A DNA stretch of 14,974 nt, from the UHGV virus genome UHGV-1728491. The stretch is one strand, 5' to 3'. The DNA comes from a virus. Positions within the stretch are counted from its first letter, which is position 1. Each line of letters opens with the position of its first letter. The notes beneath the pieces were generated by a model, which saw only the letters and a program-made list of their open reading frames with translations, searched no databases and had not been told where the DNA came from. This document shows positions 1,583 through 14,852 of the stretch, piece by piece. The position numbers and the translations under genes are program-made.

Positions 1583-1605
1583 ATTTAAAGGCCGCGAAAG
1601 CGGCC
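1581..1605 (-). terminator. Rho-independent terminator ending the minus-strand late operon; also the 3' hairpin for the convergent plus-strand gene
   Basis: Perfect stem GGCCGC (1590-1595) / GCGGCC (1600-1605) with a GAAA loop (UUUC on the minus transcript). On the minus-strand RNA the hairpin is followed by UUUAAAUUU (complement of 1581-1589). On the plus strand the downstream sequence is not U-rich. Confidence 0.7.
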
Positions 1606-1625
1606 TGTGACATGTCACGCTCACG

Positions 1626-1766
1626 TTATGACAAGCCTATGTACCCTGCTACACCAGATAATATCAAAATAACTGCAACAGCAAATTCGCCATCGTCAAT
1701 GATACATTTACGGTTCATAACGCCAAGTGCAACAAGCGCAAACACAACAAGAATAAAAGCAATCAT
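1626..1766 (-). CDS. Small hydrophobic protein, 46 aa, two predicted transmembrane segments; function unknown
   Basis: Hand-translated (below the 60-aa track cutoff): MIAFILVVFALVALGVMNRKCIIDDGEFAVAVILILSGVAGYIGLS, stop TAA at 1626-1628. SD AAGGA is 6 nt before the ATG (rc of 1764-1766) and overlaps the stop of the upstream 824-aa gene. Two hydrophobic stretches flank a charged loop (NRKCIIDDGE). Confidence 0.55.
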   Translation of the reverse strand: MIAFILVVFALVALGVMNRKCIIDDGEFAVAVILILSGVAGYIGLS

Positions 1767-6058: not shown

Positions 6059-8567
6059 TCGGAATATCTCCGGAGAATCTCTGACGCTTCTGTGTCAGAT
6101 TAAGAACAACGGGAGAACCATCATCTTTCAGCAGATAACCAGTACCAAGTTTCACCAGGTACTGACTATCGCCGTAACTTTGCAAACCATACTGACCAGG
6201 CGGTGTTTTTATCCCGGAGCCGACAACTTGTTCATTCCAAGCCTGATTAACCTGCTTATCGAATTGCTCCGCAGACATTCCCCACGGCAAAAGGACATTC
6301 CCCATTCCGTTATAGTCATGCACGCCACCTGTAGCTACGTTAACAGCCTGTTTCCAGACATCATTGTCAATTTCGCCTGATACCACGCCTTTTTTCGCCA
6401 TCACACCAGCGTAATAATCCTTTGCGATCTCGTATGCCATTGATGCCCCCTGAGCGTCACCAGCAAATGCATCCTTCACCATGTCAGAAAACTCAAGGCG
6501 AAGATCAGCATCTTTAGGCATCGGAATACCTTTCGCATCATCAGTACCTTTACGAGCCGCCGCGCCAGCAAGAATTGTCTGCGCAGCGGTTTCAGGAGAC
6601 ACGGAAACATCCGGATTAAACCAGTTTTTTTCTGCCAAAATACCACCTGGCTTATCCATCAGTATCCCGGCAACGGCAGCAGATGGAGCGTTGGCACTGA
6701 TCTGCTGTAGTGCTGACATATACACCTGCCCACCACCAGTGCTCTGCCTGATGGTATCGAGATATGCTGCCTGTTGGGAAACTGGAGCATCACGAAAGAA
6801 AACACCGATCTGATTGGCCTCATCTTTGGAAAAGAACGTCAGTGGAGTGCCATATGACTTAGCAAGGTCACTGACCTGAGCGGCACGCAAGGCAACGCTC
6901 TGTCCAAAGTTATCCTTATTGCTCATGTCGATAGGCTTTGCCTGTCCGGCGGCAAGAGAGAACTGCACAGGATCCGATTGCCGCTGCTTTATCACCTGAT
7001 TTGCAGCCGAAACAACGTTGTCATAAAGAGCTGCGCGTGCCGCATACCCCTCCCCTGTCTCACCAGTATCCGGGCGTAATTGCTCAACATATGCTGTAAT
7101 GCTGCTTGTCGGCATGTTGCGGAAAGAGCCTATATACTGTCCGGCGATTTGCGTATTTCTGAACTCGGTATATCGCAGGTTTCCTTCTCTGACTCCATAA
7201 GCTGCAATAAAATCAGCCTCACCAGGTGGGTTAGGAAATTCAACGCCACGCATATACGCAGATGTCGCATCGCGAACTTGGCTGTCAATCATCGTTTTAT
7301 ATTCAGCCTGCTGCTGCCGACGCAGTTGATCCGCCTGTCGCATAAAACTTGCCTGCGCCTCAGGAGATGCCGCATCGAATGCTGCATTACCGGTATAGCG
7401 TTTGGTGTTGGTTGGAATTGTTGATAAACCAAGTGCTGCACTGACACCAGCAGTTAACTGCTGATCACTGTATGGCTGGCTACCGTTCTCATGATGGATA
7501 ATGGCTGCACAAAGCGCCTTCAGGGTATCAGGATTAGATGCATCGAGAGGCTCATCAGCAGAAACGCCAAGTTGTTCGCACACTGCTTTGATATACGACA
7601 TAGTGTCATTTTTATCAGTAGGCGGTGCCCAGCGATTAATTATCTCGCTGACGGTATCGATACCCTGCCGCTGATACGACATCAGGTTACGCCCTAATGC
7701 ACGAATCCCGTGCTCAGGTGTTTCGAATTTAGCAAATCGACCATCATCACCGGTCTGGCCTACCCACGGATTAGTTTTGCTGTATTCGAGATTTCCTGGG
7801 TTATTGTTGCGTATGCCACGGGCACGCTCGGAAGAGTCATTATCTGCTACAGCACGGCGAGCTCCAGCAGCAGTATCACTTAACTCGCCATTACTTTGGA
7901 TGAATGCGGTCGCATTGTTTGCCGACCACTGGGACAATGCGGCATCAGCAACCTTCTCTTTAAACTCGATTTTCTTGGCCTGTATTTGCTCGTCGCTCCA
8001 GCCATGCGCAACGCCGTAATCCTCAATTTGCTGGAAAGTTTGCTTATTAGCCAATACGTATGCGGCGTTGTCGCCATACAATGCTGCGGCATTTTTACCA
8101 TTGTTCAGCAGCGTCGCCTGAAACTGGCCTTCTTCGTAGGAATTTATTTGCCCTATCTCGTGCCGCCCGGCCTGCGTAGTGAACTGAATGCGCTGCTGCT
8201 GCGCCTGCTGCATGAAAGCATTACGAGCCTGTTCATCCGGCAGCGACATAGCCAGTTGCTCGACCTGGGCATCAAACTGCTGCGTATACTCCTGACCTTT
8301 TCCAATAGCATTTTTCCCTTTCAGGTTAAGCAATCCTGTTTCAGGATTATTCAGCAGATCACTGCTTATCTGACTGAGGTTAAGAGATGCCTCCTGAGCC
8401 AGAGCGATATTGGCACGCTGTTTTGCCTGCCCCAAAACATCAATTGCCTCTGTCCCTGCCCGAACAAAAGCATCACTAATACCTAGCTGAGAAAACGTCT
8501 GCAAGCCTGCTGACTGAACTCCACGACTCTCAACCTGACGTCCGGATACTGTTGGTACGACTGGCAT
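6039..8567 (-). CDS. Large internal virion / ejection protein (842 aa from the preferred start), gp15/gp16-class; contains a conserved hydrophilic NNNPGN block of possible enzymatic function
   Basis: The track gives 867 aa from 8642, but the ATG at rc 8565-8567 has a strong SD GGAGGA (rc of 8573-8578) and forms a TAATG stop/start overlap with the gp14-like gene, so I place the start at 8567. Follows the gp14-like gene as in T7-type cassettes. Conserved-looking block RGIRNNNPGNLEYSKTNPWVG…IINRWAPPTDKNDT at nt ~7443-7820. Confidence 0.65.
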   Translation of the reverse strand: MPVVPTVSGRQVESRGVQSAGLQTFSQLGISDAFVRAGTEAIDVLGQAKQRANIALAQEASLNLSQISSDLLNNPETGLLNLKGKNAIGKGQEYTQQFDAQVEQLAMSLPDEQARNAFMQQAQQQRIQFTTQAGRHEIGQINSYEEGQFQATLLNNGKNAAALYGDNAAYVLANKQTFQQIEDYGVAHGWSDEQIQAKKIEFKEKVADAALSQWSANNATAFIQSNGELSDTAAGARRAVADNDSSERARGIRNNNPGNLEYSKTNPWVGQTGDDGRFAKFETPEHGIRALGRNLMSYQRQGIDTVSEIINRWAPPTDKNDTMSYIKAVCEQLGVSADEPLDASNPDTLKALCAAIIHHENGSQPYSDQQLTAGVSAALGLSTIPTNTKRYTGNAAFDAASPEAQASFMRQADQLRRQQQAEYKTMIDSQVRDATSAYMRGVEFPNPPGEADFIAAYGVREGNLRYTEFRNTQIAGQYIGSFRNMPTSSITAYVEQLRPDTGETGEGYAARAALYDNVVSAANQVIKQRQSDPVQFSLAAGQAKPIDMSNKDNFGQSVALRAAQVSDLAKSYGTPLTFFSKDEANQIGVFFRDAPVSQQAAYLDTIRQSTGGGQVYMSALQQISANAPSAAVAGILMDKPGGILAEKNWFNPDVSVSPETAAQTILAGAAARKGTDDAKGIPMPKDADLRLEFSDMVKDAFAGDAQGASMAYEIAKDYYAGVMAKKGVVSGEIDNDVWKQAVNVATGGVHDYNGMGNVLLPWGMSAEQFDKQVNQAWNEQVVGSGIKTPPGQYGLQSYGDSQYLVKLGTGYLLKDDGSPVVLNLTQKRQRFSGDIPNELLWP

Positions 8568-9112: not shown

Positions 9113-9576
9113 TATTTTCTCTCCATGTGAAATCTGTGGAAATTAAGACCAAGAGCACCATAAGGCGCGGCTTCTTCAAGCCTGAATCCAAGCCAGTGCA
9201 GCCATGCTTTGGCAACATGGTTTCGCTCGTCGACGTAGTTTTCCAGGCGCGGATAAACTGCCAGCATCTGCTGCAATACAGGGCGGCAGTGGCGCAGAAA
9301 TGTCTTCTGATATTTTTCAATACGGCTGGTTCCGACCAGCCAGGGCGTACCATTGCCACCGATCATTGACGCCGGAGATACACCAAACATGGTTACCAGT
9401 TCTCCGTTCGCGAACCCTGACCAAGCCATAGTCGCAGTGCGAAGACCAACACGCAGCGCATCTTCGGTAGTCATCAGCGATACCGCATACAGTTCGTCAA
9501 TATCAGCCTGACGAACATCCGGCAAAATCATCTGAAGATGCTCTTCGGTAGCGGGAATAATTTGAACATCAATCAT
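9112..9576 (-). CDS. Internal virion protein A-like (T7 gp13-like position), 154 aa
   Basis: ATG overlaps the stop of the gp12-like gene (ATGA at 9574-9578). Size and position between gp12-like and gp14-like genes match the gp13 slot. Call is positional only. Confidence 0.45.
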   Translation of the reverse strand: MIDVQIIPATEEHLQMILPDVRQADIDELYAVSLMTTEDALRVGLRTATMAWSGFANGELVTMFGVSPASMIGGNGTPWLVGTSRIEKYQKTFLRHCRPVLQQMLAVYPRLENYVDERNHVAKAWLHWLGFRLEEAAPYGALGLNFHRFHMERK

Positions 9577-12038
9577 CAGAATCCCCCAACAGTAAGGCGA
9601 GGAATAACGGCAAGAACAGACAGCGGCAACGGGTCAAGCTGAAGGATTCTTACACGTCCGTTTTTGCCCCAGTTACTGTCCAGTTTCACTTCTACTTTTC
9701 CGGTAGCGTCATCAACAGGATCATCGTAGAACTCGAATTCACGCTGTGGATATTCGTACCATTTACCGCCGGGCGTAGTCGCCCAGATGCCGCGGCTGGC
9801 ATTCACAACCAGAGTAACGGATGGGATCACCTGTTTTTTGTCCAGCAGCGTTTCCTGTCCGTTAATGTTGATATCCAGTGTTTCGAATTCAGCAGTTATT
9901 GGCAGGCCGATGTGCACTACAGCCCCCGGTGATTCCAGCGTGACGGCACCTCCGGAAACTACTTTCTGTGGTTCCACGTTCGCATCAGAGAGGATGTTTA
10001 CGGTCTGACCTTCAAGATGAGACAAGCCGCCAAATGCCCGGCGCGCCATCTGCCAGTTCGTGGTGGCCACATTCCTGAGGGATGGCGGGACGTTCCTGTT
10101 AGCACGAACCACTACAGCGGTGTTGCTGGTTACAGAAATAATGTCGCAACGTAATTCTTTTGCGCCAGTATCAGGATCAGTTCCGGTATAAGGGAACTGT
10201 AGTTGCGCACCGACATCACTACTGGTGAAGTACGCACCACCAGAAATACTGATTGTATATTCCGCGCGGTAATCCCATTCGCCAGAACCACCAGTGATGG
10301 TCATCGTTCTGTCAGACGTATTTCTTCCATCATAGCTAAGGCCAGAATCAACAAAGAAAGCATCTTCATCGCTGGTAAATAAACGGCTGGACAGTCGCTC
10401 GATGTATCTCACTTTTTGCCCGTTAACGGTTCGGTTAACGACGAAATACACCGCATCTTCATTGCCTTCGCTGATACTGCATGTGCTTTCATATTTTCCG
10501 GTACTGGATTGTGGTGCCCATGCAAAAACCTGCTGATCACGCAAATAGGTCATCACCAGTAATTTACCGTCATCACGAATGCAGAAGGCGCTGGAGTAAG
10601 GGACAATCGAGAAGCACCAGTCAACAATGCTGTGCTTCTGAAAAAGATGATTGGCAAGGATAGTCAGGTCGTTCCCCTGATAGCCGTCAACATCGAATGA
10701 ATAGGCCAGATCACGGACAACACTGCCTTTCTCCTGGACGAACAGAGCAATATTCGCCACGGCAATTGGTGGGACGTTGCTTGAGCCATTTGATCCCTGA
10801 GAGCTGAATGCAAATGATGATGGGGTTAACACTTTGTTCTGGTCGCCGGTGATGACGTACTCACCTCCGGAAGTCAGTGCCACCAGCGAACCGACATCAA
10901 TCAGGTGGCGGATCTCATTAACCTGACGCCCGGCATAGGTGTAGATAATTCTGTCGTCATCCTGCGTAGGATTGCTTTTGCCAAAATCCTTATAATCCCC
11001 AGTACGGCTGGCCCAGATAGTCTGAGGGAACGCAGTCGATGCGGCGAAGTAAAGACGTTGTTGATAATAAACAACAGTGCCAGGATAACCATTAACACTG
11101 TTCCAGGCATATTTAGCCCATTTATAGCTGGCATTATCCTCGCCAACTATCTGCGAAGGGATATAGGAAATCACCTCGGCAGTTGCAGTAGTTCCATTTG
11201 CAGCAGTGATACGGGCAATGCCAAAACCACTGTGCAGATATTCCCACTCAATGCCAGTGTCATCATCACCGGATCCGCCCCAGCCATCCCATGATGTGCC
11301 TTCTGTATGCGAAGGGCGCAAAGTGCCTGTTTTGCCTGCTGTAACGGCGCGATAGTAGTTACTGTCTGCACGGCGAATATCGCCAATCGACGTACTCTTA
11401 CTGGTTTCCCATACCGGTACTGAATCCACTGCTGGCTGTTCCAGATAGAACAATTTTCCTACCTGCTCCGCGCCAAAAATAGAGGCGCTTGCCGTTAACG
11501 TAATTGTCCCGGTGCTGGCGCTGGCATAAACCGTCACTGACTCGTCAATATTGATATCTTCAAATGGCCCGTTCTTCGTTACTACATCAACCAGTTGCCA
11601 GTTGTCATGCGCATAGCGGCGCAACTCTTTCGGCGGGTATGCCGGATGAACCAGCGTAAGCACGTCTGCGCTTTGCGTGAATTTAATTCGGAACAGATCG
11701 GCTTCAGTATATGGCGTGGCAATTTCATAAATAACATTGCTGCTGTTCAGCACCAACGCACCATCTTTGATAACGCGCATGTACTGGTGTCCGAACTCCA
11801 GAGCATAGGTCTGAACCGTCGAGAACTGGAACGGGATCAGGCGGCATTTCCGATTTGGGTATTTGGCGGCACCGACAAAACGCGTACCAGGTCGATTCTC
11901 AACGCCGCCATACTGCCGCACGATAAAGTTATCGCACTTGCGCAATGCCACCTGGTACTTCGCCATGTCGATACGACCGTACAACGACGGTCCAATCTCA
12001 CCACCGGCAAAGCTGGGCTGTATCCAACTGATAGCCAT
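9576..12038 (-). CDS. Tail tubular protein B / nozzle protein (T7 gp12-like), 820 aa
   Basis: Long ORF. ATG (rc of 12036-12038) overlaps the upstream stop (TGATG), with GAGG 8 nt upstream. Several segments (N-terminal MAISWIQPSFAGGEIGPS…; central …WASRTGDYKDFGKSNPTQDDDRIIYTYAG…SGGEYVITGDQNKVLTPSSFAFS…) parallel the T7 gp12 sequence as I recall it. Follows a ~200-aa gp11-like gene. Confidence 0.7.
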   Translation of the reverse strand: MAISWIQPSFAGGEIGPSLYGRIDMAKYQVALRKCDNFIVRQYGGVENRPGTRFVGAAKYPNRKCRLIPFQFSTVQTYALEFGHQYMRVIKDGALVLNSSNVIYEIATPYTEADLFRIKFTQSADVLTLVHPAYPPKELRRYAHDNWQLVDVVTKNGPFEDINIDESVTVYASASTGTITLTASASIFGAEQVGKLFYLEQPAVDSVPVWETSKSTSIGDIRRADSNYYRAVTAGKTGTLRPSHTEGTSWDGWGGSGDDDTGIEWEYLHSGFGIARITAANGTTATAEVISYIPSQIVGEDNASYKWAKYAWNSVNGYPGTVVYYQQRLYFAASTAFPQTIWASRTGDYKDFGKSNPTQDDDRIIYTYAGRQVNEIRHLIDVGSLVALTSGGEYVITGDQNKVLTPSSFAFSSQGSNGSSNVPPIAVANIALFVQEKGSVVRDLAYSFDVDGYQGNDLTILANHLFQKHSIVDWCFSIVPYSSAFCIRDDGKLLVMTYLRDQQVFAWAPQSSTGKYESTCSISEGNEDAVYFVVNRTVNGQKVRYIERLSSRLFTSDEDAFFVDSGLSYDGRNTSDRTMTITGGSGEWDYRAEYTISISGGAYFTSSDVGAQLQFPYTGTDPDTGAKELRCDIISVTSNTAVVVRANRNVPPSLRNVATTNWQMARRAFGGLSHLEGQTVNILSDANVEPQKVVSGGAVTLESPGAVVHIGLPITAEFETLDININGQETLLDKKQVIPSVTLVVNASRGIWATTPGGKWYEYPQREFEFYDDPVDDATGKVEVKLDSNWGKNGRVRILQLDPLPLSVLAVIPRLTVGGF

Positions 12039-12643: not shown

Positions 12644-12966
12644 CACTCACCTCCGTTACCGTACAGAGTTTCAGCCGCTGATTTTTCTACATCCCCGGAA
12701 ACAGGAGCGATCGCCATATCAGTGATCTGCAGATCGGCGCTGCGATTAACGCCATCGTCAGTTTCTCTGGCAGACAGGCCTCGAATAACAGCCTTTGCAG
12801 TTATCATCACTTCTGTTCCGACGCCCTGAGGTTGCGCCTTCAACTTATTCAATGTGTCGTTATTAAGAGTGATGCACAGCCCCCACGGGTATTCATCGCG
12901 AGTTCTGGTTTCTCCGCTCTCATCCTGGTAGCTGTCAGTGCCGGTTTTGAGGTTTACGAGTTCCAT
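12643..12966 (-). CDS. Hypothetical virion-associated protein (107 aa from the preferred ATG); C-terminus carries the SAAETLYG motif shared with the scaffold-like ORF
   Basis: ATG at rc 12964-12966 has SD GCAGGAG 5 nt upstream. The GTG start used by the track (12972) has no usable spacing. First gene of the translationally coupled chain leading into the gp11-like gene. Confidence 0.55.
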   Translation of the reverse strand: MELVNLKTGTDSYQDESGETRTRDEYPWGLCITLNNDTLNKLKAQPQGVGTEVMITAKAVIRGLSARETDDGVNRSADLQITDMAIAPVSGDVEKSAAETLYGNGGE

Positions 12967-12978
12967 ATACACTCCTGC

Positions 12979-13000
12979 AATAAAGGGGCCGAAGCCCCTT
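12979..13000 (-). terminator. Intra-operon stem-loop with UUCG tetraloop followed by a U-rich tract; candidate partial terminator or attenuator
   Basis: Minus-strand RNA: AAGGGGC-UUCG-GCCCCUU (complement of 13000-12983), then UAUU, then the SD of the next gene. Lies in the 50-nt gap between the 111-aa and 107-aa genes. Confidence 0.45.
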
Positions 13001-13016
13001 GTCTGATCCGCGAGGC

Positions 13017-13352
13017 TTACACGCCCAGTTCTTTACGCTTATCTGCGATCTTCTCGCGGAGCGTTTCGGCTTTGGCGTTATGGTGTGGCTTCTCGTTAAA
13101 GAGCAATTCGTACTCTTCACGGAGCTTATCCAGTTCACCATCATCTGACACATCGTTGATGATTTTGGTGCTGGTTGCTGCCATTGACACCTTTCCTGCA
13201 ACTTTTGCTTTTGCCTGTCTGGCTGCATCGTTAACAGGTTCCAGTGCGCTACCAGGCTCACCTTCGTATTCGATTTCTGCCCCCTCCGGCCACAGAGTGT
13301 TATGGATATGAGAGAGGCGCAGAACGCGGTATCTTGGTTTCTCACCTGACAT
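13017..13352 (-). CDS. Hypothetical small acidic virion/assembly protein (111 aa from ATG; 114 aa if the GTG at 13361 is used)
   Basis: ORF between the 145-aa gene and the hairpin. ATG at rc 13350-13352 is preceded by AAGGTG. The alternative GTG start (13359-13361) lies 1 nt after the upstream stop. C-terminal half is charged and probably helical (…DDGELDKLREEYELLFNEKPHHNAKAETLREKIADKRKELGV). Confidence 0.5.
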   Translation of the reverse strand: MSGEKPRYRVLRLSHIHNTLWPEGAEIEYEGEPGSALEPVNDAARQAKAKVAGKVSMAATSTKIINDVSDDGELDKLREEYELLFNEKPHHNAKAETLREKIADKRKELGV

Positions 13353-13815: not shown

Positions 13816-13835
13816 GTGGGTCTGTTACGACCCAC
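13816..13835 (-). promoter_or_regulatory. Stem-loop (7-bp perfect stem, 6-nt loop) directly after the capsid gene, no U-tract; candidate RNA processing or stability element
   Basis: GTGGGTC (13829-13835 complement) / GACCCAC (13816-13822 complement) on the minus transcript, with loop GUAACA. Located 16 nt after the capsid stop and followed by UAAUGGAGAAAGAAG-AUG (SD and start of the 145-aa gene). Confidence 0.35.
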
Positions 13836-13851
13836 AGGTTAATAACAGGCG

Positions 13852-14838
13852 TTACACCACGCGGGCTTCTGTTTCCAGAAGCGCATCAGTCTCACGGATT
13901 GGTACACCACGGAATGAAGTCCACCACTCGCCTTCTGTCTCTTTTACGCTGATCGCCAGAGATGTTTTCTCCAGAGATTGCAGATCAAGAGCCTGGCCTA
14001 CAGTGCGGTTCATGTAGAACACCGGGCGGCCCATGCCACGGTTTGGAATGCGATGCAGTGCTTTAACCATCAACTTCGCAATATTTGCTGCAGAGGAAGG
14101 TTCTGAAAGATTGCTGACATCGATGTTTGCAATGCGAACAACATAACGCCAGTCACGCAGAGCAAGCCCGTTGTCCCATTTGTAATGGGTACGGTAGCCT
14201 TCGTACTTGCCGCCATTCGCATCTTCCAGTGTCACCTGGCCTTTATCTTCCATCTGGATGCCAGCCTTCTGCCCTTTCGGGAAGATGCCATGCACGGTGT
14301 TTTCGCCCCACACCACTAACCAGATTGAGGTGTTATCTGTACCCGTGCCACCAGCATCAATGATGTTCTGAGCATTACCCGCAGACAGGCTGGAATAGCG
14401 GGAGGACAGTCCCATAAACTGCTGAGGGTTAACGCTGGAATCACCATAAAACAGTGTCTGCGCCATCTGCTGATTCATCGCTTCAATAAATGCGCGGTCT
14501 TCAGACAGGCGGAACTCGGCGGTATTGCCGTTCAGATCAGCCAGTGACTTATCGACTTCAGCATAGGTTTCCAGCATGCCAACGGAATCGGTTACCTGCA
14601 CTGTGGTTGATTTGCTTGGCTGTACGCCATAGTTCAGCAAACGCCAGGTAGCTGAAGGTAAACCAGAACGAATGGTGGTTCGGTGTCCGGTAGGAAGGTT
14701 CCCTTCGACAAAAGGCATATCCTGAAGGATCGGGTTAGTTTGACCGAGAAGCTCGATAATCTTATCGACTTTCCCGTTTGGATCGACGCGCTTACCCCAG
14801 TCAGCCAGCGTTAGCGCAGTTAAGCCTTTAACAGCCAT
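13852..14838 (-). CDS. Putative major capsid protein (328 aa from the second ATG; 330 aa if the ATG at 14844 is used)
   Basis: Complete ORF of typical HK97-fold capsid size, directly downstream of a scaffold-like ORF and upstream of the tail genes. SD GAGAGG sits 8 nt before the ATG at rc 14836-14838 but only 2 nt before the ATG at rc 14842-14844, so the second ATG is preferred. No diagnostic motif recognised; the call is from size and synteny. Confidence 0.55.
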   Translation of the reverse strand: MAVKGLTALTLADWGKRVDPNGKVDKIIELLGQTNPILQDMPFVEGNLPTGHRTTIRSGLPSATWRLLNYGVQPSKSTTVQVTDSVGMLETYAEVDKSLADLNGNTAEFRLSEDRAFIEAMNQQMAQTLFYGDSSVNPQQFMGLSSRYSSLSAGNAQNIIDAGGTGTDNTSIWLVVWGENTVHGIFPKGQKAGIQMEDKGQVTLEDANGGKYEGYRTHYKWDNGLALRDWRYVVRIANIDVSNLSEPSSAANIAKLMVKALHRIPNRGMGRPVFYMNRTVGQALDLQSLEKTSLAISVKETEGEWWTSFRGVPIRETDALLETEARVV

Positions 14839-14852
14839 TGTCATTTCCTCTC

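Follow-up and report, generated by a model that had tools for sequence, protein, structure and literature searches.

The 50-nt gap ahead of the gene for a Gp10-like capsid staple protein in this phage DNA contains a GC-rich RNA hairpin with a U-rich tail, oriented in the sense of the surrounding genes and placed just before a ribosome-binding site. We infer from the sequence and from its conservation that this hairpin is most probably (probability about 0.6) an ordinary intrinsic terminator used by the host RNA polymerase on the late minus-strand transcript, and that it is partly leaky and thereby sets the ratio of head to tail message. The orthologous site in phage epsilon15 is already annotated as a terminator. 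The window, i.e., the whole stretch of DNA that was analyzed, comprises 14,974 nt of the virus genome UHGV-1728491.

Two temperate podoviruses, Escherichia phage TL-2011b and phiV10, match the capsid-to-tail segment of the window at 98-99% identity, and Enterobacter phage Tyrion matches it at ~84%. Judged by sequence identity, the window belongs to a prophage of the phiV10/TL-2011b type (epsilon15-like), in the genus Uetakevirus, of which epsilon15 is the type phage. The 200 bases around the hairpin are present in 516 of 5426 complete E. coli genomes (~10%), nearly always on the chromosome, and the prophage is therefore a common one. The complete annotations of TL-2011b and epsilon15 contain no RNA polymerase gene, so the late genes should be transcribed by the host enzyme. 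The candidate late regulator of TL-2011b, gp20, has no match in Pfam, and PHROGs gives only "transcriptional regulator" for it.

All structural genes of the window lie on the minus strand (Table 1), and the gap with the hairpin is one of only two sizeable gaps in an otherwise overlapping gene chain. The earlier note had placed the hairpin between the capsid-proximal small genes and the tail/ejection genes. The gap does lie ahead of that chain, but the first gene downstream of it encodes the Gp10-like product, which the RefSeq annotation pipeline labels "capsid staple protein". The start of the 201-aa tail gene overlaps the stop codon of the Gp10-like gene, and it is this tail gene that heads the overlapping tail/ejection chain. 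Its product is homologous to Bbp14 of BPP-1 (E 5e-27) and to ORF18 of CP2 (E 1e-19), and the epsilon15 record notes a similarity of its counterpart to the T7 tail tubular protein A.

The gene set of the phage includes a Bbp16-like cement protein as well as a Gp10-like staple. Epsilon15 also combines two such proteins, gp8 (Bbp16-like, labelled "structural protein") and gp10. Which protein of the pair decorates the capsid surface in such phages may merit a second look.

Table 1. Genes and RNA features of the structural region, listed in the direction of transcription (coordinates of the window).
Feature	Position	Strand	Remarks
Major capsid gene	13852..14844	minus	
Second conserved hairpin, GUGGGUC-GUAACA-GACCCAC	13835..13816	minus	Gap between capsid and cement genes; without U-tract
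Cement-like gene, 145 aa	13363..13800	minus	Homologue of BPP-1 Bbp16 (PDB 3J4U, E 1.5e-25; PF21190)
gp9 equivalent of epsilon15, 111 aa	13017..13352	minus	phrog_590, function unknown; stop UAA at 13019..13017
Gap with hairpin, 50 nt		minus	Between the 111-aa and 107-aa genes
GCCUC motif	13016..13012	minus	Directly after the stop codon of the gp9-like gene; can pair with 5' arm GGGGC
Stem-loop AAGGGGC-UUCG-GCCCCUU	13000..12983	minus	7 bp: 5 G-C and 2 A-U
5' arm AAGGGGC	13000..12994	minus	
Loop UUCG	12993..12990	minus	
3' arm GCCCCUU	12989..12983	minus	
U-rich tail UUUAUUGC	12984..12977	minus	Counted from the last G-C pair; overlaps the two A-U stem pairs; transcripts would be released here
UAUUGC after the hairpin	12982..12977	minus	
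Shine-Dalgarno sequence AGGAG of Gp10-like gene	12976..12972	minus	5 nt before the AUG
AUG of Gp10-like gene	12966..12964	minus	Start agrees with TL-2011b and Tyrion annotation
Gp10-like capsid staple gene, 107 aa	12643..12966	minus	PDB 3J40 chain N, E 2.1e-21; PF21628, E 1e-51
Tail-tubular-A-like (gp11-like) tail gene, 201 aa	12038..12643	minus	phrog_394, tail protein
820-aa gene	9576..12038	minus	Further genes beyond it; stop and start codons share a base
Terminator-like hairpin AGGCCGC-UUUC-GCGGCCU, then UUAAAUUU	1606..1589	minus	End of structural operon; z -4.0

On the minus strand the whole gap reads UAA-GCCUCGCGGAUCAGAC-AAGGGGC-UUCG-GCCCCUU-UAUUGC-AGGAG-UGUAU-AUG, with the upstream stop codon 16 nt before the stem and the stem itself in non-coding sequence. 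The loop is a canonical c(UUCG)g tetraloop. The stable UUCG hairpin and U-rich sequence claimed in the earlier note are borne out on this coding strand, with a U-tract that is interrupted and a folding energy of -12.1 kcal/mol as an isolated perfect stem or -12.7 kcal/mol in its 32-nt context. Two details of position have to be corrected. Position 12979, which had been given as one end of the hairpin, takes in four bases of the tail, as the stem ends at 12983, and the stem ends 6 nt rather than 5 nt before the Shine-Dalgarno (SD) sequence. The folding-energy calculation suggested there as a check has been run; it gave z = -2.68 for the 32-nt context, a stability reached by 2 of 200 dinucleotide shuffles. 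A wider context of 76 nt is no more stable than its shuffles (z -0.40), and only the local hairpin stands out. By stability it ranks eighth among the perfect-stem hairpins of the coding strand, in a list that repeats some sites with alternative loops, and several equally stable hairpins lie inside genes, so that energy alone does not single it out. Three of the top hairpins of the coding strand (13835..13816, 13000..12983, and 1606..1589) lie in non-coding sequence, one in each of the strand's three small gaps.

The tail, taken from the end of the G-C core, has five U in its first six positions and five in all eight. It is a short tract with interruptions, whose first two U are able to pair with the AA at the base of the stem. 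The hairpin is not listed in a scan for consensus promoters and terminators, because there the stem was extended into these two U. A TransTermHP-style score, in which the ViennaRNA stem energy was combined with the TransTermHP tail formula (core dG <= -8, tail score <= -3.5), picked out only two sites on the coding strand, namely this hairpin (tail score -3.6 to -4.2) and 1605..1590. Both are intergenic, and shuffled sequences gave 0.8 +/- 1.0 sites. The two sites match terminators annotated in epsilon15, after gp9 and after gp18, respectively, which supports the reading as a terminator. The stem-loop is GC-rich, has a short loop, lies on the sense strand and follows a stop codon. It fits the class of intrinsic terminators on every feature tested except a clean U-tract, and termination itself is a prediction. 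A terminator acting on the plus strand at this place was rejected, as the tail in that direction is weak and there are no plus-strand genes nearby. Rfam 15 gave no family at gathering score anywhere in the window.

The hairpin at the end of the structural operon comes after a 46-aa hydrophobic, unannotated-looking ORF (1626..1766, minus strand), which itself follows an 824-aa gene. The ORF and the hairpin match gp18 of epsilon15 and its annotated terminator in position.

Gap sequences were collected from annotated phages, from species-representative genomes and from assemblies with Gp10-like proteins of 60-90% identity. The conservation set consists of 28 distinct gap sequences of the same type (here called lineages), with Gp10 identities down to ~60%. 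Across these, GGGGC/GCCCC is essentially invariant and 27 of the 28 have a UUCG loop, while the spacer of 8-12 nt between GCCUC and the stem occurs in 21 variants. The tail is U-rich in every lineage (e.g., UUUCUUGC, UUUUUUGC, CUUCUUGC, and UUCUUUUU), and more canonical tails are seen in epsilon15 (CUUUUCUAU), Scandinavium (UUUUUU), and E. albertii (UUCUUUUU). The AGGAG sequence is invariant in nearly all relatives, so hairpin, U-stretch and SD are kept as a block. The same pattern is found over short distances; in 80 near-identical IMG/VR loci the polymorphisms are all in the spacer, except for one change of UUCG to UUCA. In the distant relative L118 the Gp10-like gene is not preceded by a hairpin.

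The stem changes that do occur leave the pairing intact. An A-U base pair has become G-C in five lineages, and in Buttiauxella the closing C-G has become U-G. The E. albertii prophage has AGGGCC-GCAA-GGCCCU followed by UUCUUUUU, i.e., a swap of G-C to C-G together with a loop changed from UUCG to GCAA. MAFFT, applied to the whole gap, failed to line up the E. albertii and epsilon15 hairpins correctly; pairs were therefore counted on loop-centred 22-mers, with epsilon15 left out of the formal count. In this count 92% of the cells are paired, and two pairs have changes on both sides, in addition to wobble changes. A score this high is reached by 8 of 500 shuffles and by none of the slid controls. 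The covariation support for the hairpin thus appears real, though only modest given how little the stem varies. The G-U wobbles fit an RNA read from the coding strand and would not fit a DNA palindrome.

The closest comparison is with epsilon15 itself. The GenBank record (AY150271.2) lists eight "rho-independent terminator" features, and one of them is a stem_loop at 7664..7686 in the gp9/gp10 gap, an annotation that is itself a prediction. Terminators of this phage were taken from the features of that record. Order and gap are the same as in the window, with the gp9 equivalent, the hairpin, the Gp10-like gene and the gp11-like tail gene following one another, and the GGGGC/GCCCC core, the U-rich tail and the position just before the SD are also shared. 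The epsilon15 version (AAAAGC-CGGGGCC-AUUC-GGCCCCG-CUUUUCUAU, -19 kcal/mol) is longer and more canonical; it has an AUUC loop and seven G-C pairs that are extended by pairing between an A-tract and the U-tract. The hairpin is unmarked in the records of phiV10, TL-2011b, and Tyrion.

A GC-rich hairpin with a U-run is also found directly before the homologous tail gene in three more distant phages, BPP-1 (bbp15/bbp14 gap), Xanthomonas phage CP2 (ORF17/ORF18), and Caulobacter phage RapA (gp045c/gp044c). The tails are GCUUUUUCUU (UUUUU), UCUUUUUAGG (UUUUU), and UUUCGUUAU, respectively, and the hairpin sequences are unrelated to that of the window. Unlike in the window, no Gp10-like gene separates hairpin and tail gene in these three phages, because that gene adjoins the portal gene there. 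The BPP-1 and RapA records carry no regulatory feature at the hairpin before the tail gene, and BcepC6B has no gap at this position. Comparison of these sequences thus points to a recurring theme in distant relatives, in which a hairpin with a U-run stands just upstream of a tail-tubular-A-like gene.

In the epsilon15-like clade the Gp10-like gene sits between gp9 and the tail gene; in BPP-1, BcepC6B, CP2, RapA, and two Manatee Spring phages it adjoins the portal gene instead. The gene is movable and also dispensable, being absent from phage EC.W1-9. In at least one E. coli prophage (match H111) the alignment reaches over positions 12968-13100 of the window only, so that the Gp10-like gene may be missing there too. 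Phage EC.W1-9 keeps the hairpin and the SD directly before its tail gene. The hairpin was also considered as the terminator of a moron-type cassette, which was rejected as it lies upstream rather than downstream of the movable gene and stays when the gene is absent.

Phage T7 has a leaky terminator, T-phi, after its capsid gene 10 and before its tail gene 11. T-phi directly follows the capsid gene and acts on the single-subunit RNA polymerase that T7 itself encodes. The earlier note had likened the hairpin to this terminator, and the likeness holds in part. The hairpin and U-run lie in the late structural region upstream of a tail-tubular-A gene (here the 201-aa gene), which fits a terminator for head and tail dosage, and the supposed role, i.e., more head than tail message, would be common to both. 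Here, however, there is no phage RNA polymerase gene, and the capsid and tail genes are separated by three others (cement, gp9-like and Gp10-like), of which the second immediately precedes the hairpin. The capsid gene is thus separated from it by the 145-aa and 111-aa genes, and the position of T-phi is held by a hairpin without U-tract (13835..13816), which is the closer positional analogue. By analogy the hairpin may work like T-phi, but for want of a phage polymerase, and given the genes between it and the capsid gene, it would not be a member of the T7-type class I terminators. The early terminator Te of T7 (GGCUCACC-UUCG-GGUGGGCC-UUUCUGCG) is an E. coli-type intrinsic terminator read by the host polymerase. 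The hairpin of the window resembles Te in its UUCG tetraloop, its GC-rich stem and its interrupted U-tract (of the type UUUCUGCG, UUUCUUGC, or UUUAUUGC); it differs in its shorter stem (5 G-C plus 2 A-U) and in a site inside the operon rather than at its end.

If the hairpin is a leaky intrinsic terminator, it would form in the exit channel, closed by its c(UUCG)g loop, as the polymerase transcribes the U-rich stretch, and part of the transcripts would be released. The polymerases that continue would transcribe the Gp10-like gene and the overlapping tail/ejection genes. The genes for terminase, portal, protease, capsid, cement and gp9 would consequently have more mRNA than the tail genes. Head mRNAs that stop here would carry a stable 3' hairpin and should therefore decay more slowly by 3'-exonucleases. 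With essential tail genes downstream and, by the consensus promoter scan, no promoter-like site between them and the hairpin, termination should be incomplete or in part suppressed. Complete suppression during lytic growth would leave no ratio set. Leaky terminators are common in phage operons, and T7 uses inefficient terminators to balance expression (PMC9163698).

The partial terminator that the earlier note had proposed, one that sets a ratio of capsid to tail expression, is in part supported by the sense-strand hairpin with its U-tail, by its conservation in 28 lineages, by the epsilon15 annotation and by the analogues in BPP-1, CP2, and RapA. The short, broken U-tract, the mere five G-C pairs of the stem and the lack of a hairpin in L118 speak against a terminator. 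The first gene downstream encodes a capsid component (as gp10 does in epsilon15), which does not fit a simple split of capsid versus tail. In the literature on phiV10, TL-2011b, epsilon15 and other Uetakevirus phages we found no data on transcript 3' ends or read-through and none from reporters.

The hairpin in the gap between the capsid and cement genes bears on the strongest alternative. Its energy is -12.4 to -13.6 kcal/mol (z -3.19), and 5 nt separate it from the GGAG of the following gene. Its stems differ widely among relatives and are still paired (UGGGCC/GGCCCA, GGCGGGC/GCCCGCC, AGCGGCCCGG/CGGGCUGCU, and AGCUGCCCGG/CGGGCGGCU), with far greater covariation than at the hairpin before the Gp10-like gene. 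A U-tract is never present there among the relatives compared, and the short gaps of epsilon15 and E. albertii lack the hairpin. BPP-1, BcepC6B, and RapA likewise have GC-rich hairpins without U-tract after the capsid gene. A hairpin of this kind may be a decay barrier that raises the level of capsid mRNA.

Non-terminator hairpins are therefore used in such operons, as these U-less hairpins after capsid genes indicate, and the hairpin before the Gp10-like gene could likewise be an RNA stability or processing element, with mRNA levels set by decay. It might block 3'-to-5' exonucleases after an endonuclease has cut downstream, or, once the A-rich spacer has been cut, it may cap the Gp10/tail mRNA at its 5' end. 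Both hairpins end 5-6 nt before an SD, and c(UUCG)g and GCAA are both extra-stable tetraloops. Such a role leaves unexplained, however, why a U-rich tail is constant here and before the tail gene in BPP-1, CP2, and RapA and never occurs at the capsid-gene hairpin. It is from this difference between the two hairpins that the U-run looks selected rather than a by-product. A terminator hairpin also stabilizes 3' ends, so that this explanation partly overlaps with the preferred one; as a non-terminating element we consider the hairpin possible but unlikely. Processing by RNase III was rejected at this site, since the enzyme needs a stem far longer than 7 bp.

The block could also serve translation of the Gp10-like gene. 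The hairpin would then shield the ribosome-binding site from upstream structure, and the U-stretch would be a standby site or a binding site for S1, giving a high output of capsid protein. The U-rich stretch abuts a strong AGGAG at ideal spacing, the downstream product is a capsid staple homologue, and hairpin, U-stretch and SD are conserved together, all as one would expect. The equivalent element in BPP-1, CP2, RapA, and EC.W1-9 precedes a tail gene and not a capsid protein, however, and the cement-protein gene, whose product is a capsid component by Bbp16 homology, has a hairpin but an A-rich leader. On balance a dedicated initiation module seems improbable.

The GCCUC motif raises the idea of a switch that senses the ribosome. 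GCCUC would pair with the nascent GGGGC arm and compete with the terminator stem; a ribosome on the stop codon would cover the motif and so allow termination, and read-through into the Gp10-like and tail genes would track the coupling of translation to transcription late in infection. The motif is kept in 27 of the 28 lineages, next to the spacer that varies so freely. When the nascent RNA is folded to minimum energy, AAGCCUC pairs with GGGGCUU in most lineages, and the full-length fold keeps this pairing in about half of them. Covariation offers no help, as both partners are invariant, and the pairing is extended in only 2 of ~8 variant lineages. Dickeya, E. albertii, and epsilon15 keep the terminator without the GCCUC pairing, and in epsilon15, where the similar GCGCUC stands at this site, there is no GCCUC:GGGGC alternative. 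The competing helix is also much weaker than the local hairpin of -12 kcal/mol and should be displaced quickly. We regard such an attenuator as very doubtful.

An inverted repeat that arose by chance, or a palindrome that acts in the DNA (for instance to bind a protein or in recombination), in either case with no role in RNA, is hardly credible: the unremarkable 76-nt context, the equally stable hairpins inside genes and the adjoining breakpoint in gene content (presence or absence of the Gp10-like gene) would suit it, but the local fold is unusual (z -2.68), the stem is invariant while its flanks vary, the compensated changes include G-U pairs that are valid only on the sense RNA, and non-homologous hairpins stand at the same place in distant phages.

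The scientific weight of the preferred reading, a leaky intrinsic terminator, is small, as this would be a routine operon-internal terminator whose orthologue is annotated in the type phage of the genus. It is a candidate addition to the annotation of a prophage found in about one in ten complete E. coli genomes. For the engineering of phiV10 reporter phages, inserts placed upstream and downstream of the hairpin may differ in expression. A putative terminator before the tail-tubular-A-like gene recurs in podoviruses of the epsilon15, BPP-1, CP2, and RapA types, which depend on the host polymerase, and parallels the layout of T7. A measured value for read-through would quantify how such phages set the ratio of head to tail message.
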